A DNA stretch of 34,353 nucleotides from an uncultured Calditrichaceae bacterium (GTDB lineage: Bacteria > Calditrichota > Calditrichia > Calditrichales > Calditrichaceae), in contig CAZJNP010000001.1 in the NCBI GenBank assembly GCA_964547355.1, positions 1 to 34,353 of the forward strand, given 5' to 3'. Every line of letters begins with the position of its first letter. Position 1 is the stretch's first letter. A model generated the notes under the pieces. That model saw only the letters and a list, made by a program, of their open reading frames with translations, was not told where the DNA came from and did no database searches. Positions 2,217-34,353 of the stretch are shown here, piece after piece. The translations under genes were made by a program, and so were the position numbers.

Positions 2217-2813
2217 ATGAAAACTACTTTTTCAGAAATCGTAATCGAAGGCCGTTTTATGCTGGTTAAAGGGTTTCTGTTAGGTTTTCTTTCGGTAAAG
2301 AATCCTGAGGGGAAATATTTTTTCCACCGCAAAGCGGGTATTCGACGCGAAACATTTAAGGATTTATTGAAAGAATTTTTTGAACTGGATAACTATGTCC
2401 ATTTGTGCCTGGAAGACAACCTGGTAAAACCGTTTGTGGAAGCCTCTAAACTGTACACCAAAATCACCGGCAACGAAGTAAAATCCATCCGGCCGATTAC
2501 TTCAGCACGTTTTAGTTTTGCTTTCGAAGTTTTCAATCGGGAAGCGGCCGCAGAAATAAAGAATGTAATCGAACATCTGCCGGAGGGCGTAAAACTGACC
2601 GATTTTTTCCCTTACGAGGAAAAAGACGCCGAGGGCAAAGGCACCGAAGCTTACGCGCCCCTGCATGAATATGTTTACCGGGCCAAAGGCGTTCTGGAAG
2701 GTGATTTTTCCGGCGTAATGGATGTTTACCTAAATCTGAAACGAAGCAAATATTCGGAATCCATTATTTGCAGCGACGTGAAGCTGGAACTGGGAGAGGA
2801 ACAAGCGGTTTGA
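2217..2813 (+). CDS. Hypothetical protein
   Basis: The 198-aa ORF has a strong RBS (TAAGGAGG, 7 nt upstream of the ATG). I recognised no family. Confidence 0.45.
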   Translation: MKTTFSEIVIEGRFMLVKGFLLGFLSVKNPEGKYFFHRKAGIRRETFKDLLKEFFELDNYVHLCLEDNLVKPFVEASKLYTKITGNEVKSIRPITSARFSFAFEVFNREAAAEIKNVIEHLPEGVKLTDFFPYEEKDAEGKGTEAYAPLHEYVYRAKGVLEGDFSGVMDVYLNLKRSKYSESIICSDVKLELGEEQAV

Positions 2814-3111: not shown

Positions 3112-3663
3112 CTAAATCCACTCTTCAAGGATTTCCTTGCGCGGGGAGGGAATTACGATTTTTTCCACCAGCAACCCTTTTTTCTCAATGATCGCCGCGC
3201 CGGCGTCCACCGCGGCTTGTACGGCGCCCACTTCTCCGGTGAGCGTAACGTAACCTTTGCCGCCGATGGCCATGGCCAGGTGCACGTTAATCAGCTTGAT
3301 TTCGGCCGCCTTCACGGCTGCGTCGGCCGCTTCGATGACCGAGGCTACGGAAAATCCTTCAATAATGCCCAGGGCTTCGATCTTCGGCATGCGCGCCACG
3401 CCGTTGATCGCCGGGAAGACTTCGGGATGAACGTTCGGAATCACAAAATGATCCACCACCGTATGAGCGCCCACGGCCACGCCGGTTTCGATACTGGCGT
3501 TCACCGCGTCCACATCGCCGCCAATAAGTACCATATATTTGCCCGGACAAATCGTCCGGTTGACCACGATCTGCACGTCCGCTCGCTTTAATACGGCGTC
3601 GGCAACTTCGTACCCTTTGGCAATACTCGATGTTTCCACAATACCAATGGCTGCGCCTTTCAT
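3112..3663 (-). CDS. pduT: BMC-T shell protein (tandem BMC domains), PduT-like with the conserved pore cysteine (…VNRTICPGKYMVLIGGD…)
   Basis: At 183 aa it contains two BMC (Pfam00936-like) domains. It is collinear with Citrobacter/Salmonella PduT, including the 'TICPGK' motif whose Cys ligates the [4Fe-4S] cluster in PduT. The RBS 'AGAGGATGA' lies upstream of the start. Confidence 0.85.
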   Translation of the reverse strand: MKGAAIGIVETSSIAKGYEVADAVLKRADVQIVVNRTICPGKYMVLIGGDVDAVNASIETGVAVGAHTVVDHFVIPNVHPEVFPAINGVARMPKIEALGIIEGFSVASVIEAADAAVKAAEIKLINVHLAMAIGGKGYVTLTGEVGAVQAAVDAGAAIIEKKGLLVEKIVIPSPRKEILEEWI

Positions 3664-3675
3664 TCGTTCATCCTC

Positions 3676-5016
3676 TTATTTGGAAATGATATGGATTCCT
3701 CTGGCTTCAATTTGCGTTACCTCTCCGCTGATGCTGGCATGCGCCGGCGCACCCAGCGCCTCTTCCGGTACGGCGCCCACTAATGCACCGGCTTCTACCC
3801 GCTGCCCCACCTGAACTACCGGACTGGCCGGTTGCCCGATATGGGAATCCAGCGGAATAATGACCTCGCCGGGATTCAGACCGGCCGGTATGAATTCAGC
3901 GTGGCGGTCGTAAGGTTTCAGGCCCAGGCGGCGGTAAACCGTATCGATCGGAATTTCCCGTCCCTTGCGCGCCGGATGCACGTCGCGAAACAGGACCTCC
4001 AGTTCTTCCGGCATGCGCGAAAGTCCCTTTTCCCGGAGCAGTTGTTTGGCGTCCACGCAGATATTTTTGGGGTCCAGCCCTTCCGGACAGGCAATCATGG
4101 TGCACACATTGCATTCGCAGCAGTATTCCGCCCACAGGCTGACCCGCTCTTTGGCTTCGCCGGTCATGAGCAGATTGCGCATCACCTTGTGTGGCTCGAT
4201 GGGATAGCCCAGGATATAGCGCGGACACATTTCCGTACACAACGAGCACTGGTCGCACTGGCCGTGCCCAATGCGCTGGTACGTTTCTTTGGGCGTGGTT
4301 TTTCGGCGCACCAGATAGTGGTCGGCCGGGAGCGCAATGAGTCCGCCCACATTTTTTGCCAGCGGCAGATTCAGATCGAATTCCACGCCGCCCATCATCA
4401 CGCCGCCGGTTAGAATGGCGGCCTGTTCCACCGTGAATCCGCCTGCCAATGCGATGCAATCCCCGAAAGTGGTTCCCACCGGCACTTTGGTGGTCAGGGC
4501 ATTTTTTACCGCGCCGGTAATGGTGACGTATTTTTCCAGCACCGGCCGCTGCTCGTCCACGGCGTGGGCAATATTGATGATGGTTTCCACGTTGTCCACC
4601 ACCGCCCCTACCTGTAAGGGGATGCCTCCGGGCGGAATGCGTCGGCCGGTGATCTCGTAAACCAGGATGTATTCGTCGCCGGCAGGATACACGTCTTCAT
4701 AAATGAGGAAATCGAATCCCAGCCGCTCCGCCTGCGGCTTAAGCACCTCCACAATATCCCGGTTTTTTTCTTTTAAGGCGATGGTAACCTTTGTTGCTCC
4801 GGTGAGCTCCTGCATGATGGTCAGACCGCGTAAAAAGGCTTCCGCTTCTTCAAGCATCACAGAACGGTCCTTGTACAGCAACGGCTCGCACTCGGCGCCG
4901 TTGGCGATCACGTGTTCCACCTGAGCGTCCAGCTTTTTGTAAGTGGGGAAACCGGCTCCTCCGGCTCCGATCACGCCGGCTTCTCTGATGCGGTGCAGTA
5001 TTTCCTGTTTATTCAT
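3676..5016 (-). CDS. pduS: PduS-like / RnfC-family Fe-S flavoprotein (NADH-binding, two 4Fe-4S motifs)
   Basis: The N-terminus 'MNKQEILHRIREAGVIGAGGAGFPT' matches the PduS/RnfC NADH-binding start. Two Cys clusters are present: 'CDQCSLCTEMCP' and 'CCECNVCTMIACP'. The track ORF starts at TTG 5022, but I prefer the ATG at 5016, which lies 2 nt after the EutJ stop. The gene ends 12 nt before the BMC-T start. Confidence 0.8.
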   Translation of the reverse strand: MNKQEILHRIREAGVIGAGGAGFPTYKKLDAQVEHVIANGAECEPLLYKDRSVMLEEAEAFLRGLTIMQELTGATKVTIALKEKNRDIVEVLKPQAERLGFDFLIYEDVYPAGDEYILVYEITGRRIPPGGIPLQVGAVVDNVETIINIAHAVDEQRPVLEKYVTITGAVKNALTTKVPVGTTFGDCIALAGGFTVEQAAILTGGVMMGGVEFDLNLPLAKNVGGLIALPADHYLVRRKTTPKETYQRIGHGQCDQCSLCTEMCPRYILGYPIEPHKVMRNLLMTGEAKERVSLWAEYCCECNVCTMIACPEGLDPKNICVDAKQLLREKGLSRMPEELEVLFRDVHPARKGREIPIDTVYRRLGLKPYDRHAEFIPAGLNPGEVIIPLDSHIGQPASPVVQVGQRVEAGALVGAVPEEALGAPAHASISGEVTQIEARGIHIISK

Positions 5017-5018
5017 AG

Positions 5019-5840
5019 TCAACTTTCCGAAAATCCGTAAGCCGCAATGGCCAGCGGCGTTAAGTATAACGGGTTCGAAGGCAGAATAATTTCGTACCCC
5101 GGTAATTCCTGTTCAAACACCCGGTCGATGCCGGGAAAACAAAAAGTCCCTCCGGAAAGATAAACAGAGTGCACGTTTTGTCCCTGCAGGTGCTGCCGGA
5201 TAATTTCCGCCATCTTCTGAAAAACCGGCATGACCACAGGGGCGAATTGTTCTGCCTGTGGGCTGCGTTTTAATTCTTCCGCTTCTTCGAGAGAAATTTT
5301 TTGATTTCCCGCCAAGGTCAGGCTCACGTGCCTGCCGCCGGTCGGTTCATCCGCCGAATAAATGATGTTGCCGTTTCTGCTGATTGCAATCCCGGTGGTA
5401 CCGCCGCCGATATCCACCACCGCCCCGTCGTCGATCTTTAACAAATGCACAACGCTGGACGGTTCGTCAATAATCGCTTTTATAGAAAGTCCGGCCGCCC
5501 GCAGGACATTCTGAACGATTTCCCGGTCCGTACCGGGCGGGTAAGAGGTCACTGCTTCTTCGATTTTAATATTGAATTTCTCTTCGGCCAGGGAAACCAG
5601 TTTTTTAACAATCTGAACCGCGCCCCAGTAATTGAGCACCACGCCATCCCGTACCACTTCGGCCCATTCCATAAACGCCGCAGCGGGTTCTCCACGTTCA
5701 TCCACCAGCAGAATCACCACATCGGCGGTGCCAAGGTCTATACCTACCTGCCAGCGCGCCGGCGCTTCCGTCGGGGAGACGTCGTTGACAATGGATGCAA
5801 TCTTTTGCAGCCGCCGGTTAATCGTTTGCAATGCATTCAT
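5019..5840 (-). CDS. eutJ: EutJ-like actin/Hsp70-fold ATPase (BMC-associated chaperone-like protein)
   Basis: It has the 'VGIDLGTADVVILLVDE' phosphate-1 motif and a 'DIGGGTTGIAI' motif typical of EutJ. I trimmed the track ORF (5019..5990) to the ATG at 5840 (MNALQTINRRL…). That start sits 8 nt downstream of the aldehyde dehydrogenase stop and has an AGGATGA RBS. The longer N-terminus in the track overlaps the aldehyde dehydrogenase gene. Confidence 0.8.
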   Translation of the reverse strand: MNALQTINRRLQKIASIVNDVSPTEAPARWQVGIDLGTADVVILLVDERGEPAAAFMEWAEVVRDGVVLNYWGAVQIVKKLVSLAEEKFNIKIEEAVTSYPPGTDREIVQNVLRAAGLSIKAIIDEPSSVVHLLKIDDGAVVDIGGGTTGIAISRNGNIIYSADEPTGGRHVSLTLAGNQKISLEEAEELKRSPQAEQFAPVVMPVFQKMAEIIRQHLQGQNVHSVYLSGGTFCFPGIDRVFEQELPGYEIILPSNPLYLTPLAIAAYGFSES

Positions 5841-5848
5841 CCTGAGCG

Positions 5849-7267
5849 TTAAACAATCCTGAAATGATCCACGATGACGCATCTGCGCAAGCGGACGAAA
5901 CTTTTGGCCGAAGTGACACCTTCGCCCGTGGGCGTGGTAATGGTCATGGAGGTCCAGCCCTCGCCGCCGAAGCCCAGTCCAGCCAGGCACGGACCGTTCT
6001 TGACAAAAATGCTGGTATTAATCTCGTTGGCCATGCGGTGCATATGATCGATGTTCCTTGAGTGCATGGCCGCGGAATGGTGTAGTCCGCGCTCCAGCTC
6101 GATGGCCGTGTCGATCGCGGCGTCGGCGTCGGGCATGCGAATCAACGGCACGACCGGCATCATCAGCTCAATGCGGGCAAAGGGGTGATTTTTATCTGTT
6201 TCCACGAACAACAGGCGCGTTTCCGGTGGCACATTTACCCCGATGGCAGCGGCCAATTTGGCGGCGTCCCTGCCGACCCATTTCCGGTTGATGACCGCAT
6301 CCGGTCCTGGATAGCCTTCCAGAATCACGCGAGCCAGCTCGTCGGCCTGAGCGGATGTTAATTCCACCGCTTTGTTTTTCTGCATCTCCTGCTTTAGCTG
6401 GTCTGCGATCTGATCGACGGCAATAATTTCTTTCTCGTCGGCGCACACGATGTTATTGTCGAAAGAGGCGCCCCAGACGATCGATTTGGCGGCTTTGGCG
6501 ATATCCGCGGTTTCGTCCACTACTACCGGAGGATTGCCGGCTCCGGCGGCCATCAGCCGTTTGTTGGTGTGTTTTCTGGCCGCCTCCACCACCGATTCTC
6601 CACCGGTAACCACCAGAAGATCGATACCCGGATATTTGAACAACTGTTGCGCGTTTTCTATGGAAGGTTCGGCCACGGTCGTTAAAAGATATTGGGGTCC
6701 GCCCACGGAAACGATGGCCTGATTGACCACTTCGATGGCGCGATGCGTGACTTTTTTTGCGGCCGGATGCGGCCCGAAGACCACGGCGTTGCCTGCCGCA
6801 ATCATGCTAATGGCGTTGTTGATGACCGTAGCCGCCGGATTGGTGGACGGCGTAATGGAAGCAATCACGCCCCAGGCCGCGTTCTCGATAATGGTTAACC
6901 CATGGTCGCCGGAGAGGGCGTCCGGTTTCAGATCTTCCAGTCCGGGTGTATGTTCGGCCTGAGAGATATTTTTTTGGATCTTGTCCTCCACGCGGCCCAT
7001 ACCGGTCTCCTGAACCGCCAGTTCCGCCAGTTCGCGGGCGTATTGAACCCCGGCCTGACGCATCGCCTGAATAATCTTTCCGCGAAATTCCAGATTGCGG
7101 ATTTTCTTCTGGGCTTCTTTAGCCACCTGCACCGCTTCGTCCAGCGTTTCGTAAACTCCGGCCGGGTACTTCTTTGCAGTCGAACGAACGGTGGTCGGTT
7201 GTGCCTGGTTCAGGCGGGCCATTACCGAATCGACGATTTGGGAAATCTCCCTGTCCGATAAAGCCAT
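5849..7267 (-). CDS. eutE: CoA-acylating aldehyde dehydrogenase (EutE/PduP-like) with an N-terminal amphipathic encapsulation peptide
   Basis: This is an aldehyde dehydrogenase superfamily fold with a catalytic Cys region ('…FDNNIVCADEKE…'). I chose the start at the ATG at 7267 (MALSDREISQIVDSVMARL…) because it has an AAGGAAA RBS. The track's upstream extension (MLHFIAAFF…) lacks one. The first ~18 residues form an amphipathic helix followed by a Pro/Thr-rich linker, as in PduP/EutE encapsulation peptides. Confidence 0.85.
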   Translation of the reverse strand: MALSDREISQIVDSVMARLNQAQPTTVRSTAKKYPAGVYETLDEAVQVAKEAQKKIRNLEFRGKIIQAMRQAGVQYARELAELAVQETGMGRVEDKIQKNISQAEHTPGLEDLKPDALSGDHGLTIIENAAWGVIASITPSTNPAATVINNAISMIAAGNAVVFGPHPAAKKVTHRAIEVVNQAIVSVGGPQYLLTTVAEPSIENAQQLFKYPGIDLLVVTGGESVVEAARKHTNKRLMAAGAGNPPVVVDETADIAKAAKSIVWGASFDNNIVCADEKEIIAVDQIADQLKQEMQKNKAVELTSAQADELARVILEGYPGPDAVINRKWVGRDAAKLAAAIGVNVPPETRLLFVETDKNHPFARIELMMPVVPLIRMPDADAAIDTAIELERGLHHSAAMHSRNIDHMHRMANEINTSIFVKNGPCLAGLGFGGEGWTSMTITTPTGEGVTSAKSFVRLRRCVIVDHFRIV

Positions 7268-7409: not shown

Positions 7410-7700
7410 CTATTCCAGCGTTCCTTTTAATTTAATCGGAAACACTTCTTCCAGATCGCCGTGCGGACGCGGGATCACGTGCACGGAAACCAGCTCGCCT
7501 ACCCGTTCGGCAGCCGCAGCACCGGCGTCGGTGGCCGCTTTACAGGCCGCCACATCGCCACGTACCAGCGCGGTGACGTATCCGCCGCCAATCTGTTCGT
7601 AAGCCACCAGTTTTACACGCGCGGCTTTGACCATGGCGTCCGCGGCTTCTATCAGGCCTACGAGGCCCTTGGTTTCGATCATTCCCAAAGCTTCCATCAT
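7410..7700 (-). CDS. BMC-H hexameric shell protein (PduA/EutM-like), copy 1
   Basis: The sequence '[29 protein letters not shown]…[19 protein letters not shown]' is the canonical BMC-H (Pfam00936) fold. A GAGGAG RBS precedes the ATGATG start. Confidence 0.9.
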
Positions 7701-7821: not shown

Positions 7822-8109
7822 CTATTCAATCTTTCCTTTTAATTTTATGGGAAACACGTCTTCCAGATCACCATGCGGACGCGGAATCACATGCACGGAC
7901 ACCAGCTCGCCGACCCGTTCGGCAGCCGCAGCGCCGGCGTCGGTTGCCGCTTTACAGGCAGCTACATCGCCGCGTACCAGCGCGGTGACGTATCCGCCGC
8001 CGATTTGTTCATAAGCCACCAGCTTTACTTTGGCCGCTTTGACCATGGCGTCCGCCGCTTCAATCAATCCTACCAGCCCCTTGGTTTCAATCATACCTAA
8101 TGCTTCCAT
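7822..8109 (-). CDS. BMC-H hexameric shell protein (PduA/EutM-like), copy 2
   Basis: It differs from copy 1 at about 4 of 95 aa. An AAAGGAG RBS precedes the start. Confidence 0.9.
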
Positions 8110-8198: not shown

Positions 8199-9212
8199 TT
8201 ACGAATGACTTAAATTTAACTGGTTCTTCTCTAATAAACAACAAGCAAGAATCGTTGTTTTAATAAAACTTTCCGCGCTGCCGGTGGCAGGCAGGCCGTG
8301 TACCGGTTTCCTGAAACCGGTGTAAAAGGGCCCGTAAAGATGCCATCCGGCCAAATCGCGTGCGATCTTATACCCGATGTTGGCCGCGTTCAGCGAGGGA
8401 AAAATGAGCACATTGGCTTGACCCTGCAATTTACTACCGGGCGCTTTTTTGGCGGCCACTTCCGGCACGATGGCCGCGTCGAACTGCAATTCTCCCTCAA
8501 TGGTCATGCCGGTTTTTTGCCCCTGCGCCTGTTGCACGGCTTTCGTTACCTGATCCACCAGCTCGTGCCGGGCGCTGCCCATGGTAGAAAACGAAAGCAA
8601 CGCCACCCGCGGCTCTTCTTCGGTCATTTGCGCGTAAGCCCGCCCCGTGTTCACCGCAATGGACGCCAATTGCTGCGCCGTTGGCCGGGGCAGCACGCAG
8701 CAATCCGCGAAAGCCAGCGCCCGTTGGTTGTCCGGGCTAACCAGTAGATAAAATCCTGATACCGTATTTTCGGCCTCATCCACACCCACCATCTGGAGAA
8801 CCGCTTGCAACGCATCTTTAATGGGCGATTGGTTTCCGGTCATCACAAGGTCGGCCAATCCCCTGGCCACAAAACCGCTGCCGTACCAGAGCGGGTCGTT
8901 TAGCAGTGATTCTGCCTGGTAACGGGTCAGCCCTTTGGCTTTACGGCGGTCAAAGAAAGCGCGTACCAAATGGTCAAATTCCGGATCGTGCCGGGGTTGA
9001 CGAATCTTGATCCCGGTCAGAGAAATGCGAAAACGTGCGGCGAAATCCCGGATGGCGGACTTGGCGCCAATCAAAATCGGGTCTGCCAGGTTTTCATCCT
9101 TCAGATAACGAACCGTTTGCAGTACGCGTTCGTCCAGAGCGTCGGTAAAAACAATGCGGCGCGGTCGTTTACGGCAGCCTTCACGGCACCGATTTATGAT
9201 CTTTTCAAACAT
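8199..9212 (-). CDS. eutD: Phosphate acetyltransferase, EutD/Pta-type
   Basis: It is strongly collinear with E. coli EutD. Our N-terminus MFEKIINRCRE…RRIVFTDALDERVL matches EutD MIIERCRE…ARVVFPDALDQRVL. 'GFADCCVLPRPTAQQLASIA…EEPRVALLSFSTMGSARH' matches EutD '[20 protein letters not shown]…EEPRVAMLSFSSNGSARH'. 'GELQFDAAIVPEVAAKKAP…ANVLIFPSLNAANIGYKIA' matches 'GELQFDAAFVPEVAAQKAP…ANVMVFPSLEAGNIGYKIA'. The 337 aa compares with 338 for EutD. Confidence 0.9.
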   Translation of the reverse strand: MFEKIINRCREGCRKRPRRIVFTDALDERVLQTVRYLKDENLADPILIGAKSAIRDFAARFRISLTGIKIRQPRHDPEFDHLVRAFFDRRKAKGLTRYQAESLLNDPLWYGSGFVARGLADLVMTGNQSPIKDALQAVLQMVGVDEAENTVSGFYLLVSPDNQRALAFADCCVLPRPTAQQLASIAVNTGRAYAQMTEEEPRVALLSFSTMGSARHELVDQVTKAVQQAQGQKTGMTIEGELQFDAAIVPEVAAKKAPGSKLQGQANVLIFPSLNAANIGYKIARDLAGWHLYGPFYTGFRKPVHGLPATGSAESFIKTTILACCLLEKNQLNLSHS

Positions 9213-9217: not shown

Positions 9218-9526
9218 TTACTTTTTGAATCTTTGCAGCACGTCGATGACCACTTCCCGGATCAGGTTCGGATCGCGCTGGTCGGCCGGCAAACGCTCCA
9301 CGACACGCTCAATCACCTGGCGCACAGTGGTTTCGTCGATATCGTTAAATTGAGCGTTTTGGGCCGCGTCCGGCTGTTTTTGCTCTTCCAGCAGCGCAAT
9401 CCCCAGGTCTTTGGCTAGTGAACGGGCTTCGGGCGTTACGATGTATTGGTTTTTAAACGCCTCGATTTCCTTAATGCCGTCTGTGTGCGCCTGCCGTACC
9501 ATGCGGGCGGTGATTAATTTCTTCAT
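9218..9526 (-). CDS. Small protein (102 aa) of unknown family with a basic N-terminus. It is translationally coupled downstream of ParA and is a candidate ParA partner or adaptor.
   Basis: Its ATG overlaps the ParA stop (ATGA), and its own stop lies 5 nt before the eutD start. The N-terminus 'MKKLITARMVRQ' is Lys/Arg-rich, and the protein is predicted helical. I did not recognise the family. Confidence 0.55.
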   Translation of the reverse strand: MKKLITARMVRQAHTDGIKEIEAFKNQYIVTPEARSLAKDLGIALLEEQKQPDAAQNAQFNDIDETTVRQVIERVVERLPADQRDPNLIREVVIDVLQRFKK

Positions 9527-10308
9527 TTTTCTGCCGGGCCTCCGGTAAGTCGCATGCGGTTTAATATTTCTTCGGCCAGGGCCATATACTCTTTAGCGCC
9601 ACGGGCTGAAGGAGCGTAATCGATAACCGGTTTCCGGACGTGAAACGCTTCGACCAGCTTGCTGTTTACGCCGATCACCGTCTGAAATATTTGTCTGGGA
9701 AACCGTTGTTGGATCAGAGTGTACACGTCTTTGGCCACGCGCGTGCGGCGGTCGTATTGCGTGCCGAAGACGCCCAGAATCCTTAACCTGGGATTCAGAT
9801 GGCGCCTGGTTTTTTCGATGACGTTTAACGTTACGTCCAGTCCGCTGAGACCGAGATACTGGGTTTGGATGGGGATCAGAACGTAATCGGCAATGGCCAG
9901 CGCATTTAAAGCCAGGCTGCCCATGTTGGGCGGACTATCAAACAGGACGATTTCAAAGCGATCCGGGAAATCTTCCCGGTGCAGAAAAAAATCCTGCTCT
10001 TCTTCCAGGGCTATTTCTTCCAGAAATTCGCTCAGCGCCGGCTCGGAGGGTAAACAGTGCAGGAATCCGTTGCCGACCGGGTAAATATAATCGGAAATTT
10101 TGCGCTGGGGTTGGATTAAAAAATCGCAAATGGTTTGGTAATCCTTCTCCTGCTTGTCAAAGCCGAAGTGCAGCGAGGCGCTGGCCGAGGGGTCCAGGTC
10201 TACCAGCAGACAGCGTTGATTCATTTTGGCGAAGCAGGCCGCTAAATTGACCGCGCTGGTGGTTTTCCCGATGCCGCCTTTGTTGTTGACGATGGCTACG
10301 AATTTCAT
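9523..10308 (-). CDS. ParA/MinD/Soj-family P-loop ATPase (deviant Walker A 'KGGIGKTT')
   Basis: The N-terminus 'MKFVAIVNNKGGIGKTTSAVNLAACFA' carries the classic ParA deviant Walker A with the signature Lys. The ~261 aa length fits the family. The start overlaps the EutK-like stop (ATGA). Confidence 0.85.
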   Translation of the reverse strand: MKFVAIVNNKGGIGKTTSAVNLAACFAKMNQRCLLVDLDPSASASLHFGFDKQEKDYQTICDFLIQPQRKISDYIYPVGNGFLHCLPSEPALSEFLEEIALEEEQDFFLHREDFPDRFEIVLFDSPPNMGSLALNALAIADYVLIPIQTQYLGLSGLDVTLNVIEKTRRHLNPRLRILGVFGTQYDRRTRVAKDVYTLIQQRFPRQIFQTVIGVNSKLVEAFHVRKPVIDYAPSARGAKEYMALAEEILNRMRLTGGPAEK

Positions 10309-10859
10309 TTCCGCCTCTTGGGTTTAATGGCGAAATAACGCTGCCGGATTTTTTCCACCGCACTGGCGTCCATGAGTTGTTTCAGGATCAAACGCAGCTG
10401 AGCCGCTTCCAGTTTAAAGCGGGCGGCCATTTCCTGAAGGGAGGCGCCCTGCGGCGATTGCTTTAAATGATCCAGAATGAGTTGGTCGGGAGGTTGAGAA
10501 GGGGACGCGGGCTTTTTGGCCCCTTTTCTTCGTTTGGACGCGGGTTTGGTGGCAGACGGTGCGGGCGGTTTGCGTTTGGGAGCGCCGATCCATTCTTCCA
10601 CCAGATGTTGCGTGTCGTCGAACGGATTGGCGATTACGTGAGCGGCCACCAGTTCACCGACGCGGTCGGCCGCCACGCTGCCGGCATTAACCGCGGCCTG
10701 ACAGGCACCCAGTTCGCCCCGAACCACAATCATTACCAGCGCGCCGCCCACCCGGCGCCATTTGATCAGTTCCACTTTGGCTGCTTTGACCATGGCATCG
10801 GCCGCTTCGATCGCTCCCACATAGCCGCGCGTTTCTATAAAACCGTAGGATAGCTTCAT
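10305..10859 (-). CDS. eutK: EutK-like shell protein: N-terminal BMC-H domain, a basic Pro/Lys/Ala/Ser-rich disordered linker, and a C-terminal helix-turn-helix (EutK_C-like) domain
   Basis: The BMC domain reads '[27 protein letters not shown]…VMIVVRGELGACQAAVNAG'. The linker reads 'APKRKPPAPSATKPASKRRKGAKKPASPSQPP'. The C-terminal ~60 aa (LILDHLKQSPQGASLQEMAARFKLEAAQLRLILKQLMDASAVEKI) looks like a winged-helix domain, as in the E. coli EutK C-terminal domain. The start is either M at 10877 or M at 10859. Confidence 0.75.
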   Translation of the reverse strand: MKLSYGFIETRGYVGAIEAADAMVKAAKVELIKWRRVGGALVMIVVRGELGACQAAVNAGSVAADRVGELVAAHVIANPFDDTQHLVEEWIGAPKRKPPAPSATKPASKRRKGAKKPASPSQPPDQLILDHLKQSPQGASLQEMAARFKLEAAQLRLILKQLMDASAVEKIRQRYFAIKPKRRK

Positions 10860-10953
10860 AATTAATAAATTAAACAAATAATCGCTTTACAAGCAAGCAA
10901 GAATCAAACTTGGGCCAAATAAATCTAAAGCTGCTCCCGTGCGGGAAACCCGG

Positions 10954-12555
10954 TTACGCCAAAATTGCCAGCAGTTTGCAAAAAACCATCATCATCAGCA
11001 TGGCAAAAGGATAAACGGAGGCATACAGCACCAGCGGCCTCTGGGAATCGGTCATGGCCGTTCCTGCGGCCAAGCCGGGAGTAGAGGTCATACCGCCACT
11101 GATCAAACCGAACAGGTCGAGTAAAGAGAGCTTGTATTTCCATCGCGCGTAATAAGTAACGGTAATCATCGGAAGCAGCGTAATTAGTGCGCCAAAGAGT
11201 ACAAGCGTCATACCTTGCCCGCGTAATATTTCCAGCACCTGCGAACCGGCCCGGATGCCCACCACGGCCAAAAAGAGCGTCAATCCGAATTCACGCATAA
11301 AAGTCACGATGGGCGCCGGCACAAACCATATCACCGGCCCTACTTTACCGCGGTTGCTCAGAAACAGCCCGGCCAGCAGCACACCGCCGGTGATGCCCAG
11401 GTTAAAAGAAATCACCTTCCCGATCGAAAAAGGAATCAATCCGGCTAAAATACCTAACAGGATCCCCAGGATAATGGAAAAAATATTGCCGTATTCCAGC
11501 TTTTTCATTTCGTCGCCGAATAATTTGCGGATTTCGTCCATGTGCGTTGCGTCTCCAGCCACCCGCACCCGGTCTCCCCAGCACAGGCGCTGATTGGGTT
11601 CGGCCGCGAATTCCACTCCGCCGCGCCGTATACGCGTGATATTGGCATTAAACAGGGCATGCAGATTGAGTTCGCCGATGGTTTTTCCGATAATTTGTTT
11701 ATTGGTGACCACAAACTTACGCGACTCAAAATATCGGCTTTCCGGCATTTTTGATTTGGACTCGCGCCCCAGAAAGGGAGTGGCTTTTTTAACCTTGGTC
11801 TCCTCACCTACAATTCGGACGATGTCATTCACATGCAGCACCGTGTCGGATTTGGGGATATGCAGTTCCCCGTTATGAATGACCCGGGAAATGATGATTC
11901 CGGTCACGCGGGTGAGGTCCAGCTCCTTTAACGTTTTGCCGTTCAGTTCTTCGTTGGTGATGCGCACCTGCTTGCTGATCACCGGTTCCCGGGCCGACTG
12001 TTCTTCCTGTTTGATGCGTTCTTCTTCGTTTTTGATGGACGTTTTAAACAGTGCCGGCATGAGCTTGACGAACAAGATGACGCCAATTACGCCAAAGGGG
12101 TATGCCACTCCGTAACCGGTGGAGGTAAGATGGGAACCGGTGGCCTCCTGAGCGGCCGCCAAACCGGGCGTGCTGGTCATGGCCCCGGCAAATAATCCGA
12201 TGGCTAAGGCCATATCCAGATGCCCAAAATAAGAGATCAGAAAGGTCAGCAGGGCGCCGCCGCCCAAAAGAAGAAAGACCAGCGTGTTCAGTTGCAACGA
12301 TTGGCTGCGCGACATATTGAAAATGGTAGGCCCGGCCTGAAGACCAATGGCGTAAATAAACAAGATGAGACCCATCATCTGAAAATCGTGATTGAGCGTA
12401 AACCCGTAATTGCCGAACAGCATGGCTACGAACAGGATGCCGGAAGATTCAAAAGAAAAGCCAAATATCTTAATCTGCCCGAAAATGAAACCCAGGGTAA
12501 TAATCAGAAACAATAAAATGATTTGGTGCTGCTGTAAATAAACGGATATTTCCAT
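10954..12555 (-). CDS. Membrane transport protein of the AAE (aspartate:alanine exchanger)/YidE-YbjL family with two central TrkA-C (RCK_C) domains
   Basis: The 533-aa protein has duplicated hydrophobic halves flanking two cytoplasmic ~70-aa repeats ('RVTGIIISRVIHNGELHIPKSDTVLHVNDIVRIVGE' and 'IIGKTIGELNLHALFNANITRIRRGGVEF…GDRVRVAGD'). This domain order is diagnostic of YidE/YbjL/AspT-type transporters. It is the first gene of the minus-strand operon. Confidence 0.7.
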   Translation of the reverse strand: MEISVYLQQHQIILLFLIITLGFIFGQIKIFGFSFESSGILFVAMLFGNYGFTLNHDFQMMGLILFIYAIGLQAGPTIFNMSRSQSLQLNTLVFLLLGGGALLTFLISYFGHLDMALAIGLFAGAMTSTPGLAAAQEATGSHLTSTGYGVAYPFGVIGVILFVKLMPALFKTSIKNEEERIKQEEQSAREPVISKQVRITNEELNGKTLKELDLTRVTGIIISRVIHNGELHIPKSDTVLHVNDIVRIVGEETKVKKATPFLGRESKSKMPESRYFESRKFVVTNKQIIGKTIGELNLHALFNANITRIRRGGVEFAAEPNQRLCWGDRVRVAGDATHMDEIRKLFGDEMKKLEYGNIFSIILGILLGILAGLIPFSIGKVISFNLGITGGVLLAGLFLSNRGKVGPVIWFVPAPIVTFMREFGLTLFLAVVGIRAGSQVLEILRGQGMTLVLFGALITLLPMITVTYYARWKYKLSLLDLFGLISGGMTSTPGLAAGTAMTDSQRPLVLYASVYPFAMLMMMVFCKLLAILA

Positions 12556-12755
12556 GTCGTCTTTTTCTTAGTTGTTTGAAAGGCGGAATTTAAGCATGCG
12601 GTATCAATTAACCAATAAAAAAATAAGATTTATTTTGCCGTGATTGTCATGGATAAAGATGCATTTAACAGAATCATGAAACGATTACAAAAAGCGCATT
12701 CTCCGGCGTGGAATTAAAAAAAAATTCTTTTTCCTGTTTTCTAATTTCTCTATTC

Positions 12756-12784
12756 TTGTTTACTGCGCTTAAGTACGCTTATTA
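12756..12784 (+). promoter_or_regulatory. Candidate sigma70-type promoter (TTGTTT-17 nt-TTATTA) for the mutase/BMC-P/deoC/deoA operon. It lies within the 327-bp divergent control region 12556-12882.
   Basis: Hexamer spacing read from the sequence. Another possible promoter in the opposite orientation (TGACAA…TTATTT near 12640-12600) would serve the transporter/shell operon. Neither has been checked against the host's promoter consensus. Confidence 0.25.
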
Positions 12785-12882
12785 AAATATGGAGGTCTTT
12801 GCGTGATTTACCCAAATTCCCTTGTGTTTATCCGCCGGTCGGTTTAAATTGTTGTTTTATTGGGATCAGTATTTAAGGAGGA

Positions 12883-14238
12883 ATGGTGGCTGCGTTAATG
12901 GTATCTATATCGGGCATTCGGGGAGTGATCGGTGAGTCTCTGACGCCGGCTGTGGTGGACAAATACATTTCGGCCTTCGCCAAATATCTGAACGGCGGCA
13001 AAGTGGTGCTGGGCAGAGATTCCCGTGTTTCCGGGCCTTTTTTGTCCGATCTTGTGCGGGGTGTTCTGGTGGCTTCCGGTTGTCAGGTAATCGACATCGG
13101 AATTGTGCCCACGCCCACGGTTCAGTTAGAGGTGGAACATCATCAGGCGGCCGGTGGCATTGCCATTACGGCCAGCCATAACCCCATTCAGTGGAATGGT
13201 TTAAAATTTATGGGCAGCGACGGCCGCTTTTTGAGTCCCGCGGAAGCGGAAAAGGTGTTTGCCATGGCCGACTATGGCGAAACGGATTTCAAAGCCTGGG
13301 ATCGACTGGGTACGATCGCGCTGGATGACGGCGCCATTCGACGTCATATTGAGCGGGTTAAAAAAATCTCTTACATTGATGTGGAGGCGTTGCGTAAACG
13401 TCGCTTCAAGGTGGCGGTGGATACGGTGAACGGTGCCGGCGGTGTCATCATACCGCAACTACTGGAAGAGTTAGGCTGCGAAGTGATTACCCTGAATCAG
13501 GAACCGAACGGACGGTTTGCCCACACACCGGAACCTCTGCCGGAGAACCTGACCCAGCTGTGCGAGAAAGTAAAAGAAACCGGCGCCGACGTGGGATTTG
13601 CGGTGGATCCTGATGTGGATCGCTGCGCAATCGTGGATAACAATGGCCGGCCTATCGGCGAAGAGTACACGCTGGTGATCGCCACCAAACTGGTGTTCAG
13701 TAAAAAAATGGGACGCATGGTGGTTAACATGTCCACGTCGCGGGCGTCGGAAGATATAGTGAAATACTACAACGGCATGTTCATGCGCAGCAAGGTGGGC
13801 GAAATAAACGTAGCCGAAAAGATGAAGGAAATCGACGCCATCTTAGGCGGCGAGGGCAACGGAGGGGTCATCCTGCCGGAAGTACATCTGGGAAGGGACG
13901 CGCCGGTGGCTGTGGCGTTAACATTGCAGCAGTTGCTGGAATTCGGCGGAACCATGGCCGAACTGCACGCTTCTCTGCCGCAATATGTGATGATTAAGCA
14001 AAAAGTGAATATCGAGGGCATGGACCCGGATCGGGTGCTGCAAGTCATGGCCGAAAAATACAAAGACCGGCCGATCGATTTGCTGGACGGGGTGAAGATC
14101 GATTTTGAGAACAGCTGGGTGCACATGCGCAAGTCCAACACGGAACCGATTGTGCGCGTGATTAGCGAAGCGCCCACGGAGGAAGAAGCGCTGTCATTAG
14201 GTAAACGTTTTATGGACGAAATAAAGGCGTTAATGTAA
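12883..14238 (+). CDS. Phosphohexomutase-superfamily mutase (PGM/PMM/GlmM-like). From its neighbours it probably acts as a phosphopentomutase (deoxyribose-1-P to deoxyribose-5-P).
   Basis: It has the active-site 'TASHNP' phosphoserine motif and an N-terminal 'SISGIRGV' Mg/phosphate loop. The 451 aa fits GlmM and the archaeal-type PPM. AAGGAGG lies 6 nt upstream of the ATG. The function is assigned from context (the deoC and deoA neighbours), not from sequence. Confidence 0.75.
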   Translation: MVAALMVSISGIRGVIGESLTPAVVDKYISAFAKYLNGGKVVLGRDSRVSGPFLSDLVRGVLVASGCQVIDIGIVPTPTVQLEVEHHQAAGGIAITASHNPIQWNGLKFMGSDGRFLSPAEAEKVFAMADYGETDFKAWDRLGTIALDDGAIRRHIERVKKISYIDVEALRKRRFKVAVDTVNGAGGVIIPQLLEELGCEVITLNQEPNGRFAHTPEPLPENLTQLCEKVKETGADVGFAVDPDVDRCAIVDNNGRPIGEEYTLVIATKLVFSKKMGRMVVNMSTSRASEDIVKYYNGMFMRSKVGEINVAEKMKEIDAILGGEGNGGVILPEVHLGRDAPVAVALTLQQLLEFGGTMAELHASLPQYVMIKQKVNIEGMDPDRVLQVMAEKYKDRPIDLLDGVKIDFENSWVHMRKSNTEPIVRVISEAPTEEEALSLGKRFMDEIKALM

Positions 14239-14239
14239 C

Positions 14240-14524
14240 ATGCAGATTTGCCGGGTGATCGGGGATATTGTGTCCACGGTTAAAAACGAACATTTTAAGG
14301 GAAAGAAAATTCTGATTGTTCAGCCGCTGGACCTGGAGGATCAACCGCAGGGCAAAGCATTTTTAGCTTTGGATACGGTACAGGCCGGACCGGGCGACCG
14401 CGTTCTGGTGATGCGGGAAGGCGGTTCGGCGCGCATTATTTTTGAGGATAACGATATCCCGGTGCAGGCGGTCATTACCGCCGTGGTGGACGATATTCGC
14501 TTAGACGCGGACGCGCTTGATTAA
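14240..14524 (+). CDS. eutN: BMC-P pentameric vertex protein (EutN/PduN/CcmL family)
   Basis: The 94-aa protein matches the EutN pattern at 'ICRVIGDIVST' and 'QAGPGDRVLVMREGGSAR' (compare EutN 'GAGPGEWVLVSRGSAAR'). Its ATG begins 1 nt after the mutase stop. Confidence 0.85.
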   Translation: MQICRVIGDIVSTVKNEHFKGKKILIVQPLDLEDQPQGKAFLALDTVQAGPGDRVLVMREGGSARIIFEDNDIPVQAVITAVVDDIRLDADALD

Positions 14525-14607
14525 CAAATCTCCGCACATTAGCGAGGCAAAACACTTGTGAGGAGAAAAAAGAAATGCGAAAACCTGTTTAAAATAGAGG
14601 ATTATTT

Positions 14608-15432
14608 ATGTCTTCCATTACCAGCGATGTGATTGAACGGATTATTTCCCAGGTCATTTCCGAGAAACATATTGCACCGCGACCATTCACGTACGACGCG
14701 GCCAACGAATTGATTTCTTTCGGCGCCAATCGGGTCGGTGCTGTGGGTCCCACTTGTCCGCCCAAATACGAACTGGCACGCTGGATTGACCATACACTGC
14801 TCAAACCGGACGCTACACAAAAAGACGTGGAAAAAATCTGCTACGAAGCCCGTGATTACCATTTCGCTTCTGTGTGTATCAATCCTACCTGGGTGCCTTT
14901 GGCACATAAAATTTTACGCGGCAGCGAGTCCCGTGTGTGCACCGTGATCGGCTTTCCACTGGGCGCCACATTCCCGGAAGTCAAAGCCCGTGAAGCGCAA
15001 CTGGCCGTTGAAAACGGCGCTGACGAGCTGGATATGGTCATTAACATCGGTGCGCTCAAGTCCGGCGATTATGATCTGGTGGAACGGGATATTCGCGCGG
15101 TGGTACGCGCTGCGGGCCGGCGTATCGTTAAAGTGATTATTGAAACCTGTTTATTAACCGACGAAGAAAAAGTTAAAGCCTGCGCCATTGCCAAGCATGC
15201 CGGAGCCAATTTCGTCAAAACGTCCACCGGTTTCAGCAAGGGCGGTGCCACGGTGAAAGATGTGGCTTTGATGCGCAAGGTCGTAGGCGAATCCATGGGT
15301 GTAAAAGCCAGCGGCGGCGTACGCTCCTACGAGGAAGCCTGTAAAATGGTGGAAGCCGGTGCCACCCGCATTGGCGCCAGCGCCAGCGTGGCTATTGTGG
15401 GTAACGGGAACGGTAAGGACGCGGATTACTAA
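14608..15432 (+). CDS. deoC: Deoxyribose-phosphate aldolase (DERA/DeoC) with a ~50-aa N-terminal extension carrying a putative encapsulation peptide
   Basis: The core is class I aldolase TIM: '…[18 protein letters not shown]…' and '[21 protein letters not shown]…VKASGGVRS', including the Schiff-base Lys in 'FVKTSTGF'. The extension '[20 protein letters not shown]' is an amphipathic helix that is absent from free DeoC (E. coli DeoC starts near the equivalent of 'LKPDAT'). Confidence 0.9.
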
Positions 15433-15664
15433 AGCAGCGATTGTCGTGATTCGGTGTTCGTTAATGGGCATTATGATTTGATTAATAGCCCTTGACCAAT
15501 GTCCAAAGGCCAATGGTTAATTACACACAGATAGCAGTTAAATGAACGATGAATTATGACCACCGAATGAAGAATTGCGATTTCGAGGTCAATCTTCTTC
15601 TTTTGTATTCGGATGGGAAAAAATATAAAGAAAAAAAATAAATCTAAACCAGAGAAGGAATGGT

Positions 15665-16981
15665 ATGACCCCTTACGAGATAATCAGTAAAAAACGCGAT
15701 GGCTTTGAATTAAGCGATGAAGAAATTGAATTCATGGTTCTGGGTTTTGCCCGCGGCGAAATTCCGGATTATCAAATGTCGGCTTTGCTGATGGCTGTTT
15801 TTTTGCGGGGCATGAGTCAGCATGAAACCATGGCCTTAACCAAAACCATGCTTAATTCCGGGCGGGTGGTGGACCTGAGCCATATTCCGGGCGTAAAGGT
15901 GGATAAGCACAGCACCGGCGGTGTGGGAGACAAAGTGTCCATTATTTTAGCGCCCATTGTCGTTGCGGCCGGCGTTCTGGTGCCCATGATTTCCGGACGC
16001 GGTCTGGGGCATACCGGCGGTACGCTGGATAAGCTGGAAAGCATTCCCGGCTTTCGGGTCAATTATTCTATCCAGGAATATGCCGAAAAAATCGCAAAAA
16101 TCGGCACCTGCCTGATCGGGCAAACGCCGGATATTGTGCCGGCCGACAAAAAAATGTATGCCCTGCGGGACGTCACCGCCACCATTCAATCCATTCCGCT
16201 GATTACTGGCAGCATAATGAGCAAGAAACTGGCTGAAGGGATCGACGCCCTGGTGCTGGATGTGAAGACCGGGAAAGGCGCTTTTATGCAAAAGTATGAG
16301 GATTCCGTGGCTCTTGCCAAACAGTTGATCGCCACGGGCGAGCGGTTCGGCAAGCCCACGGTGGCTTACATCACGGACATGAACGAACCGCTAGGCAGGG
16401 CCGTGGGCAACTGGAATGAGATCGAAGAATGCATTTACGCATTGCAGGGAGACGGCCCTGAAGATTTAATGGAAGTAACGCACACGTTGTGCGGTGCCAT
16501 GATTTATCTCGGCAAAAAGGCGGGTTCTATCGATGAGGGCAAGGAAATCTCCAGAGAGATGATCCGTTCCGGAAAAGCATGGGACAAATTCCTGGAGATT
16601 GTGTCCGAACAGGAAGGCGATGTTGAAATGGTGAAGAATCCGCAAAAATATCCCAAATCAAAATTCAGCGTTCAGGTTACGGCGGAACAGGACGGCTATA
16701 TTGCCGGGATCGACGCCCTGGAGGTGGGGCTGACCGCGGTTATTTTGGGAGCGGGCCGCACGAAGTCGGATGACGAAATCGATCCCAAGGCCGGCATCAT
16801 GGTGCACAAAAAAGGCGGGGATCGAGTAGCAAAAGGCGAAACGCTTATGACCGTTTACACGGACAAGGAAAATGTTCTGACGGAAGCGCAAAAACGGTTG
16901 GGCCAGGCGGTTACTTATGCCAAACAATCAGTAGCACCGCGGCAGTTGATTTATGAGTACCTGGATAAGAACAGCTTGTAA
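15665..16981 (+). CDS. deoA: Thymidine / pyrimidine-nucleoside phosphorylase
   Basis: The 438-aa protein carries 'KHSTGGVGDKVSIILAPIVAAAGV' and 'SGRGLGHTGGTLDKLESIPGF', hallmarks of thymidine phosphorylase family 3. GAGAAGGAATGG provides the RBS. Confidence 0.9.
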   Translation: MTPYEIISKKRDGFELSDEEIEFMVLGFARGEIPDYQMSALLMAVFLRGMSQHETMALTKTMLNSGRVVDLSHIPGVKVDKHSTGGVGDKVSIILAPIVVAAGVLVPMISGRGLGHTGGTLDKLESIPGFRVNYSIQEYAEKIAKIGTCLIGQTPDIVPADKKMYALRDVTATIQSIPLITGSIMSKKLAEGIDALVLDVKTGKGAFMQKYEDSVALAKQLIATGERFGKPTVAYITDMNEPLGRAVGNWNEIEECIYALQGDGPEDLMEVTHTLCGAMIYLGKKAGSIDEGKEISREMIRSGKAWDKFLEIVSEQEGDVEMVKNPQKYPKSKFSVQVTAEQDGYIAGIDALEVGLTAVILGAGRTKSDDEIDPKAGIMVHKKGGDRVAKGETLMTVYTDKENVLTEAQKRLGQAVTYAKQSVAPRQLIYEYLDKNSL

Positions 16982-16990
16982 AAGGAGCGT

Positions 16991-17788
16991 ATGGGGCGCC
17001 TGACCAAAAAGCAAAAGAAGAAAATCCACTACCTTTTGCGTTCTAAAACCGAGCTGGAGCAAAAACAAAAATTGCTGCACCAGGACGGCGTTCCAAAGTT
17101 CATCGAAAAACATCTGCCGTACATCCGCAAACTGGCCCGCAATCTGGATCAGTTGCTGATCGTCGGGTCCTTTGTTTCTCCTCCTCTGAAATTAGGCTTA
17201 ATCGACCGTTTTTTAATACTGGCGGAAATCGAAGGCATTGAGCCGATCATCTGCTTTAATAAAATCGATTTACTGGAAGACTCACGCGAAGGCGAGGAAG
17301 TGCGTGAAATCTACGCACGCATCGGTTACCGCACCCTGCTCACTTCGGTTAAAAGCGGCGTTGGAATCCCTGAACTAGCCGATGCGATCAAGGGGAAACG
17401 CTCGGCCCTGGCGGGGCATTCCGGTGTGGGCAAAAGCAGCCTGCTCAACGCCATCGATCCGAATCTGCAGATCATGGTGAACGATGTCAGCCACGTTACG
17501 AAAAAAGGAAAACATACCACGACACGTGTAAAGGTGTATCATTTCGATGATCAAACGGAAGTGATCGATTTGCCCGGCATCAAGCTGATCGACTTCATCG
17601 ACATCCATTATACCGAGGCGCGACTTTATTTTCGGGAATTTGCAGAGTATGCCCCGTACTGCCGATTTAATAATTGTCTGCACATCACGGAAAGTGACTG
17701 CGGCGTGAAAGAAGCGTTAGAAAAAGGCGAGATACATCCCAAGCGATATCAGTCGTACCTCACCTTCGTGGATAGTTTGCGTTTATAA
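16991..17788 (+). CDS. rsgA: Ribosome small-subunit biogenesis GTPase RsgA (YjeQ), a circularly permuted GTPase
   Basis: G4 'FNKIDL' precedes G1 'GHSGVGKSSLLNAI', which is the permuted order. The C-terminal zinc finger is 'CRFNNCLHITESDC'. Confidence 0.85.
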   Translation: MGRLTKKQKKKIHYLLRSKTELEQKQKLLHQDGVPKFIEKHLPYIRKLARNLDQLLIVGSFVSPPLKLGLIDRFLILAEIEGIEPIICFNKIDLLEDSREGEEVREIYARIGYRTLLTSVKSGVGIPELADAIKGKRSALAGHSGVGKSSLLNAIDPNLQIMVNDVSHVTKKGKHTTTRVKVYHFDDQTEVIDLPGIKLIDFIDIHYTEARLYFREFAEYAPYCRFNNCLHITESDCGVKEALEKGEIHPKRYQSYLTFVDSLRL

Positions 17789-33500: not shown

Positions 33501-34353
33501 TTATTTCTTTTCCTTATCAGAATTTTTTTCCTTCCCGTAAAGCTTAACGGCGCATTCCGGGCAAATGGAATGACTGAAGATGGCGCTGGAATGCTCGCTG
33601 ATGTAAGACTCCAATTGCTTCCAGTATCCTTTATCGTCCCGGATTTTCTTGCAATGGGAGCAGATGGGAATCAGTCCGCTCAGGGTATTTATTTTTTCTA
33701 GCGCTTCGCCCAGTTCTTGCACCTTATTTTCCAGCGCTTCGTTCATTTCCGACACCTTGTTCTTTTCATTTTCCACCTGATTAACCAGATAAAAATTGCG
33801 CCGTGAATAGTATTCCATAAAATAACAGGCAAACATGCCCATAAAGTTTGCGCTAAGAAAGAAAAAATTATTACTGATTAATATCGGGGCCGGTGTATGG
33901 GAGATAAAAATAGCGACCAATTCATATAGTAAAATAACCATTCCGCAGGCGGCTATAGCCCAAATAAAACGAGCGCGTACAAAGGTATAGCCAAAAATCA
34001 AAATTAAAATCAACCCGGCATAATAAGAATAATTCACCGGATAAGGCGCGATGGCAATCATGGCGATGATTCCTGATCCGCCAAGGATTACCAGGAAAGC
34101 TATGGAAGCCTGCCAGAATTTTTTGAACCATCTAGAAAAAGAAAGCAAAATGAACAAAGTAATAACCGGGCAAACAATGGCATAACGAATAAACCATAGG
34201 GCATATTTCTTTTCTGGCATCAAAACGGCATCAAGGATCCCAAATGCCGCATATAAAATAATCCCAAAAACAAAAGAGATGCGAATCAGCACTAATGAAT
34301 TTTCAAAATAGTAATCCAGAAACTTTTTTTCCAGATATTGGTCATTGTCAGTA
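33501..34353 (-). CDS. Polytopic membrane protein (5' end beyond the window) with a cytoplasmic coiled coil and a C-terminal Cys/His-rich ~40-aa motif (CSHCKKIRDDKGYW…FSHSICPEC)
   Basis: The ORF remains open from 34292 to the window edge. It has at least 6 hydrophobic helices, then 'NEKNKVSEMNEALENKVQELGEALEKI', then a CxxC…H…CxxC tail reminiscent of a zinc ribbon. I did not recognise the family. Confidence 0.6.
   Translation of the reverse strand, partial: TDNDQYLEKKFLDYYFENSLVLIRISFVFGIILYAAFGILDAVLMPEKKYALWFIRYAIVCPVITLFILLSFSRWFKKFWQASIAFLVILGGSGIIAMIAIAPYPVNYSYYAGLILILIFGYTFVRARFIWAIAACGMVILLYELVAIFISHTPAPILISNNFFFLSANFMGMFACYFMEYYSRRNFYLVNQVENEKNKVSEMNEALENKVQELGEALEKINTLSGLIPICSHCKKIRDDKGYWKQLESYISEHSSAIFSHSICPECAVKLYGKEKNSDKEKK

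Follow-up and report, generated by a model that had tools for sequence, protein, structure and literature searches.

Organization of the PduS-PduT locus

We analysed a stretch of 34,353 nucleotides of metagenomic contig CAZJNP010000001.1, from an uncultured Calditrichaceae bacterium (hereafter, the window), focusing on the adjacent genes of a PduS-type protein and a PduT-type shell protein of a bacterial microcompartment (BMC). Both belong to a minus-strand operon of ten genes, encoding a BMC-H/EutK-like protein, ParA, an N-terminal remnant of EutQ, Pta, two BMC-H shell proteins, an aldehyde dehydrogenase (AldDH), EutJ, PduS and PduT. The AldDH gene lies two genes upstream of PduS. A terminator after PduT was looked for on the minus strand and none was found; the operon is inferred to end at PduT because the gene downstream is convergent. 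The three features most relevant to NADH turnover are the following.

3112..3663, minus strand: PduT-like tandem-domain shell protein (BMC-T) of the single-layer electron-transfer type (two BMC domains, PDB matches, invariant CPGK)
3676..5016, minus strand: PduS/MNdh-like NADH dehydrogenase with a predicted FMN/NADH site and two predicted [4Fe-4S] sites (Pfam, RnfC structure match, NCBIfam, alignment)
5849..7267, minus strand: CoA-acylating, EutE-like AldDH (Pfam Aldedh; NCBIfam PRK15398, 1.7e-205)

The PduS open reading frame (ORF; 3676..5022, minus strand) encodes 446-448 amino acids, with a TTG start at 5022 and an alternative ATG at 5016, the latter being the start position in every PduS homologue aligned. 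In terms of Pfam domains, the protein contains PF01512 (Complex1_51K, 1e-40), PF10531 (SLBB), PF13534 (Fer4_17) and a C-terminal PF13375 (RnfC_N), which is the domain order of MNdh proteins (PF01512, PF10531, a 4Fe-4S dicluster, PF13375). The closest solved structures are RnfC chains (7zc6_C, 5.5e-50). The match to 7zc6_C comes in two stretches, with query positions 3-313 aligned to RnfC 118-415 and 380-438 aligned to RnfC 26-83. This shows the circular permutation that is typical of PduS/MNdh, unlike RnfC and NuoF. The FMN/NADH motifs GAGGAGFPT and NGAECEP align with RnfC and are invariant in comparison with five homologues from related loci. The same holds for eight cysteines (C254/C257/C260/C264 and C299/C302/C305/C310), the predicted ligands of two [4Fe-4S] clusters.

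The PduT gene starts 12 nt past the PduS stop codon and encodes 183 amino acids, with two PF00936 BMC domains (5e-46, Pfam). Its best solved relative is 3nwg (1.7e-52), and the PduT structures 3pac and 3n79 also match (~1e-47). C39, in the sequence RTICPGK, pairs with the cysteine of TICPGK in 3pac (Citrobacter PduT) and with the serine of TISPGK in 3n79, a chain that we take to be the C38S crystal construct of Salmonella PduT. All five homologues compared retain the pore motif C39-P40-G41-K42 unchanged, and neither of the edge lysines (K26 and K118) varies in the homologues aligned. C39 is predicted to ligate a [4Fe-4S] cluster on the trimer axis.

Among Calditrichota, PduT proteins are 85-92% identical. 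PduT has the lowest non-synonymous divergence (dN) of all operon genes, with 0.055-0.087 compared to 0.10-0.20 for AldDH; synonymous divergence is >1 or saturated in all pairs, only the ranks of dN were used, and ratios are rough. This low dN argues that the PduS-PduT module is not vestigial. A first-pass annotation had described a PduS-like NADH-binding Fe-S flavoprotein with, directly downstream, a PduT-like BMC-T that retains the pore cysteine, and both descriptions hold in every respect listed above.

Alcohol dehydrogenases and census of related loci

We scanned with Pfam every ORF of at least about 90 amino acids that fits the gene map of the window, the largest uncovered gap being 627 bp. 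There was no match to the iron-containing alcohol dehydrogenase (Fe-ADH), zinc-containing alcohol dehydrogenase or SDR families among these ORFs. A six-frame tblastn search of the window with two Fe-ADHs from sister loci gave a best E of 0.3, which indicates that no pseudogene remnant of an alcohol dehydrogenase (ADH) is present. The first-pass statement that the locus encodes no ADH is thus correct for the 34 kb window.

For the comparison with relatives, 80 genome loci with 10-kb flanks were fetched with an AldDH alignment and searched by tblastn with reference proteins. In this census the ADH search covered the Fe-ADH family only; the other ADH families were checked in the window and in three related loci (L003, L005 and L007), whose Pfam tables contain no ADH family within 10 kb. 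The main groups are given below.

Calditrichota-type loci (ParA, no EutB), extending 6.2 kb or more past the AldDH start: n = 12; PduS-PduT in 8, Fe-ADH in 0, neither in 4
EUT loci with ParA, full flanks: n = 5; PduS-PduT in 5, Fe-ADH in 3 (Ignavibacteria/Bacteroidota), neither in 0
Proteobacterial EUT loci, full flanks: n = 27; PduS-PduT in 18, Fe-ADH in 20, neither in 0

PduS and PduT are adjacent in 42 of the 43 related loci that have both. The 12 Calditrichota core loci have no Fe-ADH within 10 kb, and none was found in four satellite loci with deoxyribose-phosphate aldolase (DERA, see below). As for proteobacterial EUT loci, 11/27 contain both systems, 7/27 only PduS/T and 9/27 only the ADH. 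EUT loci of Ignavibacteria and Bacteroidota have the Fe-ADH just after PduT.

Some irregular arrangements were also found. In a betaproteobacterial EUT locus (L011, on the contig shared with L045), a truncated PduS-like gene of 370 amino acids without 4Fe-4S domain (12270-13382) lies between EutJ and Fe-ADH, with a full PduS-PduT pair further downstream. Four EUT loci of Rhodoferax/Burkholderiales (L052, L058, L078 and L085; ~1.5-4 kb, minus strand) have PduS/T and no Fe-ADH. Located 6-8 kb upstream of their AldDH are a nucleoside phosphorylase gene and one resembling deoC (30-35% identity). The deoC-like gene may be there by coincidence or may be a second acetaldehyde source for the same compartment.

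The divergent deoxyribose operon

Divergent from the core operon, a plus-strand operon encodes a phosphomutase, a BMC-P pentamer, DERA and a pyrimidine-nucleoside phosphorylase.

12883..14238, plus strand: PGM/PMM-family phosphomutase (domain matches; syntenic with DERA in L092-L095)
14240..14524, plus strand: BMC-P pentamer (EutN/CcmL), the only one in the window (Pfam, six-frame search)
14608..15432, plus strand: DERA, 274 amino acids (TIGR00126 deoC, 1.3e-90, match from residue 55)
15665..16981, plus strand: pyrimidine-nucleoside (thymidine) phosphorylase (domain matches)

DERA has an N-terminal extension of about 54 amino acids that is kept in Calditrichota homologues. It is the candidate signature enzyme of the compartment, giving acetaldehyde and glyceraldehyde 3-phosphate. 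The phosphomutase would convert deoxyribose 1-phosphate into deoxyribose 5-phosphate.

Three Calditrichota genomes share a syntenic block of mutase, BMC-P, DERA, phosphorylase and RsgA (12883-17788 on the plus strand in the window, 8352-13353 in L093 and 8345-13184 in L095). It is adjacent to the core only in the window. It is a distant satellite in L093, where ~220 kb of the contig separate it from the core, and in L095. Caldithrix abyssi and Calditrichota GD2 have only the mutase-DERA part. This shared satellite block ties a signature enzyme to what had been an "incomplete core", or FRAG3, locus.

Just past the deoxynucleoside operon, the minus strand encodes a protein of 369 amino acids with a staphylococcal-nuclease domain and a hydrophobic N-terminus (18322-19431). 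This gene would fit with scavenging of extracellular DNA as a deoxyribose source.

Comparison with known systems

The closest functional precedent comes from Sutter et al. (PNAS 2024, PMC11626177), in whose MNdh/BMC-T(SE) model electron export via PduS-PduT regenerates NAD+. The purified PduS-PduT complex of Clostridium botulinum (GRM1 locus) oxidises NADH and passes electrons to the BMC-T cluster, as followed by electron paramagnetic resonance (EPR) and voltammetry. The same study found PduS homologues in 2,172 BMC loci, with a neighbouring BMC-T that has the universally conserved CP(G/S)K in 97%, and 361 BMC loci with PduS/T and no ADH, the non-B12 types named including SPU and FRAG (PMC11626177). 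The window is alike in the four-domain PduS with a C-terminal, permuted RnfC_N, in the CP(G/S)K of the adjacent single-layer BMC-T, in the co-occurrence of AldDH, in belonging to the ADH-less class and in the proposed function. It differs in phylum (Calditrichota) and in BMC type, which is DERA-based with an EUT-like core.

PduS and PduT of the Salmonella/Citrobacter Pdu compartment are homologous to the window pair, with the [4Fe-4S]-ligating cysteine aligned. That compartment has a B12-dependent diol dehydratase and the ADH PduQ, and its PduS was assigned as a corrin reductase, whereas the window has neither a B12 enzyme nor an ADH. RnfC/NuoF proteins have the FMN/NADH domain, SLBB and two-cluster ferredoxin domain in common with the window PduS, which differs in having RnfC_N at the C-terminus and a shell protein, not membrane subunits, as partner.

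In terms of BMC catalogues, the Calditrichota locus type was listed as MIC (Axen 2014, Caldithrix abyssi) and as FRAG3 (Sutter 2021), and the 2021 catalogue took DeoC beside BMC-P in Calditrichaeota FRAG3 loci as a clue to function. These loci share with the window the phylum, a core of AldDH, Pta-type phosphotransacylase and PduS, DeoC beside BMC-P, and a BMC-H with a C-terminal extension. FRAG3 components are dispersed and include a BMC-P triplet, whereas the window has its core operon next to a divergent DERA/BMC-P operon, with one BMC-P visible.

SPU loci also have a DERA with an N-terminal extension (PF01791), AldDH and PduS. According to a 2024 SPU paper (PMC11585597), PduS is present in all SPU subtypes but SPU6 and can be an alternative mode of NAD+ recycling. 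SPU loci contain RpiB (PF02502; absent only in SPU5), BMC-T(dp), a BMC-P triplet and, in most subtypes with a phosphotransacylase, one of the PduL type, none of which is found in the window; no window ORF has a Pfam match to PF02502. Assignment to the canonical SPU type was rejected on the absence of RpiB, PduL and the BMC-P triplet, and on the nearest AldDH relatives of the genome scan, which are in EUT loci.

Finally, EUT loci with ParA (L009, L036, L042, L044, L030 and L032, from Ignavibacteria, Bacteroidota and Calditrichota) share the gene order of the window, with AldDH 64-72% identical. Their common backbone is EutK-like BMC-H, ParA, Pta, two BMC-H, AldDH, EutJ, PduS and PduT. They add EutABC, EutL, EutS, EutP, full-length EutQ, EutT and EutN. 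The loci of Ignavibacteria/Bacteroidota additionally have a DUF6580 gene and the Fe-ADH behind PduT. Searches of the six frames of the window for EutB, EutC and EutT gave nothing better than E = 0.3, and the EUT type was rejected because EutBC is absent.

Evolutionary origin of the core operon

Among named relatives, those closest to AldDH and DERA come from Calditrichaceae, Calditrichota and Caldithrix. The ten-gene operon ending at PduT is also found in Calditrichota GD2, in a Calditrichaceae metagenome-assembled genome (MAG) and in other contigs. The nearest AldDH relatives in the genome scan sit in EUT loci. In an unbootstrapped neighbour-joining tree of AldDH, the ParA-containing clade is nested in EUT clades, and within it EUT-with-ParA loci are intermingled with Calditrichota loci.

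Two Calditrichaceae MAGs hold both locus types (L022 with L026, and L019 with L038). Each has an EUT locus (EutBC, EutT, EutP, EutQ, BMC-P) and an EutBC-less locus, with AldDH 72-76% identical to that of the window. This suggests a duplication, then a change of signature enzyme.

With EUT loci as its closest relatives, the core appears to have lost EutABC and EutT and kept PduS-PduT. With moderate support, we infer that the Calditrichota core is an EUT core minus the B12-dependent signature enzyme, the reactivase, the adenosyltransferase and the EutQ cupin. Retention of the pair after loss of every B12 function argues against both a corrin-reductase role and a vestigial role. More tentatively, the organelle could be EUT-derived, with its signature enzyme exchanged for DERA, the B12-linked EutABC/EutT lost, no ADH in the locus and PduS-PduT under the strongest constraint of the operon, and the window would be its consolidated, single-locus form; we regard this full scenario as possible but short of probable. 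If true, it would be a natural experiment, in which the module is B12-independent and sufficient for NAD+ recycling.

The surroundings of the pair vary among relatives. In GD2 (L003, 14894-20117), the genes after PduS-PduT encode an ABC ATPase, a B12-dependent ribonucleotide reductase and a CobO-type adenosyltransferase, and C. abyssi has the same B12-type neighbours (PMC5317091). This neighbourhood accounts for PduS having earlier been annotated as cob(II)alamin reductase. The window, L005 and L007 do not share it.

A model for NAD+ regeneration

How NAD+ is regenerated behind the shell has been debated since Pdu and Eut compartments were described, and the electron-export answer came in 2024. 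Following that answer, we propose that the window pair belongs to a Calditrichota microcompartment that degrades deoxyribose 5-phosphate. In the cytosol, nucleoside phosphorylase and phosphomutase would take deoxynucleosides through deoxyribose 1-phosphate to deoxyribose 5-phosphate. Encapsulated DERA would split the latter into acetaldehyde and glyceraldehyde 3-phosphate. The AldDH, whose N-terminal amphipathic extension (helix) is likely an encapsulation peptide, would then convert acetaldehyde to acetyl-CoA, reducing NAD+ to NADH, and Pta would turn acetyl-CoA into acetyl phosphate. As annotated from sequence, AldDH is the source of NADH and the sole NAD-linked enzyme in the locus, with PduS as its only predicted NADH consumer.

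PduS would dock to the PduT trimer from the lumenal side, oxidising NADH at its FMN. Electrons would pass along the two PduS [4Fe-4S] clusters to the [4Fe-4S] cluster in the PduT pore, held by three C39 residues, and a cytosolic acceptor would then take them up. As an outcome, NAD+ would be regenerated within the shell, and half of the acetaldehyde would not have to be spent on ethanol.

By homology, gene context and the published model, PduS-PduT probably works as such a wire from NADH to the shell; by analogy with the pair in the literature, it is expected to oxidise NADH and to pass the electrons on to the BMC-T cluster. We hold with less confidence that the pair is the main or only recycling route in this locus. 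The first-pass annotation had proposed electron export through PduS and PduT rather than ethanol formation. The first half of this proposal is supported; the "rather than" goes beyond what can be proved from the window.

Several observations weigh against this interpretation. The absence of ADH covers the 34 kb window only, and an ADH may be encoded elsewhere in the genome. The operon encodes no candidate electron acceptor. The sole acceptor demonstrated in vitro for the published complex is O2 (PMC11626177), and oxygen respiration does not sustain growth of C. abyssi, an anaerobe and the only Calditrichota species in culture (PMC5317091). Published knockouts of pduS, pduT and pduQ have mild phenotypes (PMC11626177). 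Many EUT and PDU loci carry both PduS/T and an ADH. Moreover, in four sister loci (L048, L061, L063 and L069) the same backbone ends at EutJ (e.g. L069, 5954-12228), with neither PduS/T nor Fe-ADH within 10 kb, and both are also absent from the DERA satellite of the L069 genome. These loci mean that a locus lacking an ADH need not use the PduS/T route, that the model does not cover every case, and that a third NAD+ recycling route may exist in this Calditrichota organelle type.

In terms of novelty, the electron-export idea and its application to such loci are already published, and the window adds one more ordinary case. What is modestly new is its consolidated, apparently EUT-derived, DERA-based architecture. 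One point goes beyond the published work, namely that with EUT loci as closest relatives the core appears to have lost EutABC/EutT and kept a strongly conserved PduS-PduT. The value of the locus is that of a clean test case, with no ADH or B12 enzyme and a simple, assayable substrate pathway, and with a cultured relative, C. abyssi, that shares its core operon. Under the model, acetaldehyde should be converted stoichiometrically to acetyl-CoA, no ethanol should form, and the process should depend on the pore cysteine as well as an external acceptor.

Alternative explanations

The strongest alternative is that PduS-PduT is auxiliary and that most NAD+ is recycled by an encapsulated ADH whose gene lies elsewhere, perhaps in a satellite locus. 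BMC genes are indeed scattered in Calditrichota, as seen with the remote DERA/BMC-P operon of one MAG (L093) and with a locus type catalogued as "fragmented". The Fe-ADH that follows PduT in the closest Ignavibacteria/Bacteroidota EUT loci, and the proteobacterial EUT loci with both systems, also show how the two can coexist. We nevertheless consider this unlikely, given that neither the 12 Calditrichota core loci (0/12) nor the DERA satellites (0/4) have an Fe-ADH within 10 kb, and that the window holds no ADH remnant.

The pair could also be a leftover of an EUT ancestor, with NAD+/NADH exchange across the shell or another recycling route in its place. The four related loci without either system are compatible with this, as is the published survey, which lists several BMC types with neither (PMC11626177). 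A leftover would hardly be expected to show the constraint seen here, with PduT having the lowest dN and all cofactor ligands invariant, nor to persist when EutABC, EutT, EutP and the EutQ cupin were lost. We give this explanation little credence.

Still less probable is that PduS serves as a cobalamin (corrin) reductase, as in the Salmonella/Citrobacter Pdu compartment, with PduT in support. This was the original biochemical assignment of PduS (PMC2982820). The C. abyssi homologue is annotated accordingly, and the C. abyssi/GD2 pair lies near the B12-dependent ribonucleotide reductase and CobO-type adenosyltransferase. On the other hand, the published PduS-PduT complex oxidises NADH without cobalamin (PMC11626177). 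The window contains no B12-dependent enzyme, adenosyltransferase (EutT, PduO) or reactivase (Pfam, six-frame search), which leaves a corrin reductase without client, compared to the EutABC and EutT of the closest EUT relatives. DERA, AldDH and Pta need no B12. The role was rejected on this lack of a B12 enzyme and adenosyltransferase in the window and on the non-conserved B12 neighbours of C. abyssi/GD2.

RnfC-type modules are reversible in principle, and the wire could run inward, with electrons of a cytosolic donor entering via PduT and PduS to reduce a substrate or cofactor in the lumen. This is the least credible reading, since AldDH, the only lumenal redox enzyme, makes NADH, the locus encodes no NADH-consuming enzyme for the lumen, and published EPR and voltammetry point from NADH to FMN, Fe-S and the BMC-T cluster (PMC11626177).

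Other genes of the window

The remaining genes of the core operon, all on the minus strand, are listed below.

5019..5831, minus strand: EutJ-like actin/Hsp70-fold protein, 270 amino acids (NCBIfam EutJ, 3.8e-101)
7410..7700, minus strand: BMC-H shell protein (Pfam)
7822..8109, minus strand: BMC-H shell protein, 95% identical to that at 7410..7700 (Pfam)
8199..9212, minus strand: phosphotransacetylase of the Pta/EutD type (PF01515), not PduL (Pfam, NCBIfam)
9218..9526, minus strand: EutQ N-terminal protein, 102 amino acids (NCBIfam EutQ, positions 1-99 of 233, 6e-14)
9523..10308, minus strand: ParA/MinD-family ATPase (Pfam)
10305..10877, minus strand: BMC-H with a basic linker and an EutK_C-like winged-helix C-terminal domain (Pfam)

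The 102-amino-acid protein has no Pfam match and lacks the cupin domain. A gene of about 100 codons is kept in Calditrichota loci at the position of EutQ in the EUT relatives, and the protein looks like a retained N-terminal module of EutQ.

The pair of ParA and BMC-H/EutK_C genes (9523-10877) is present in all related Calditrichota, Ignavibacteria and Bacteroidota loci and absent from proteobacterial EUT loci. By analogy with McdAB of carboxysomes, it may serve nucleoid-based positioning of the organelle. In L069, a PD-(D/E)XK gene is inserted after ParA.

Lastly, a transporter gene upstream of the operon is not conserved in relatives. The ORF convergent with PduT (2217-2813, plus strand, 198 amino acids) has no Pfam or NCBIfam match and was not seen outside contigs of this one organism (L001 and L002). 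Another ORF without Pfam or NCBIfam match, of 263 amino acids, lies at 33501-34292 on the minus strand.

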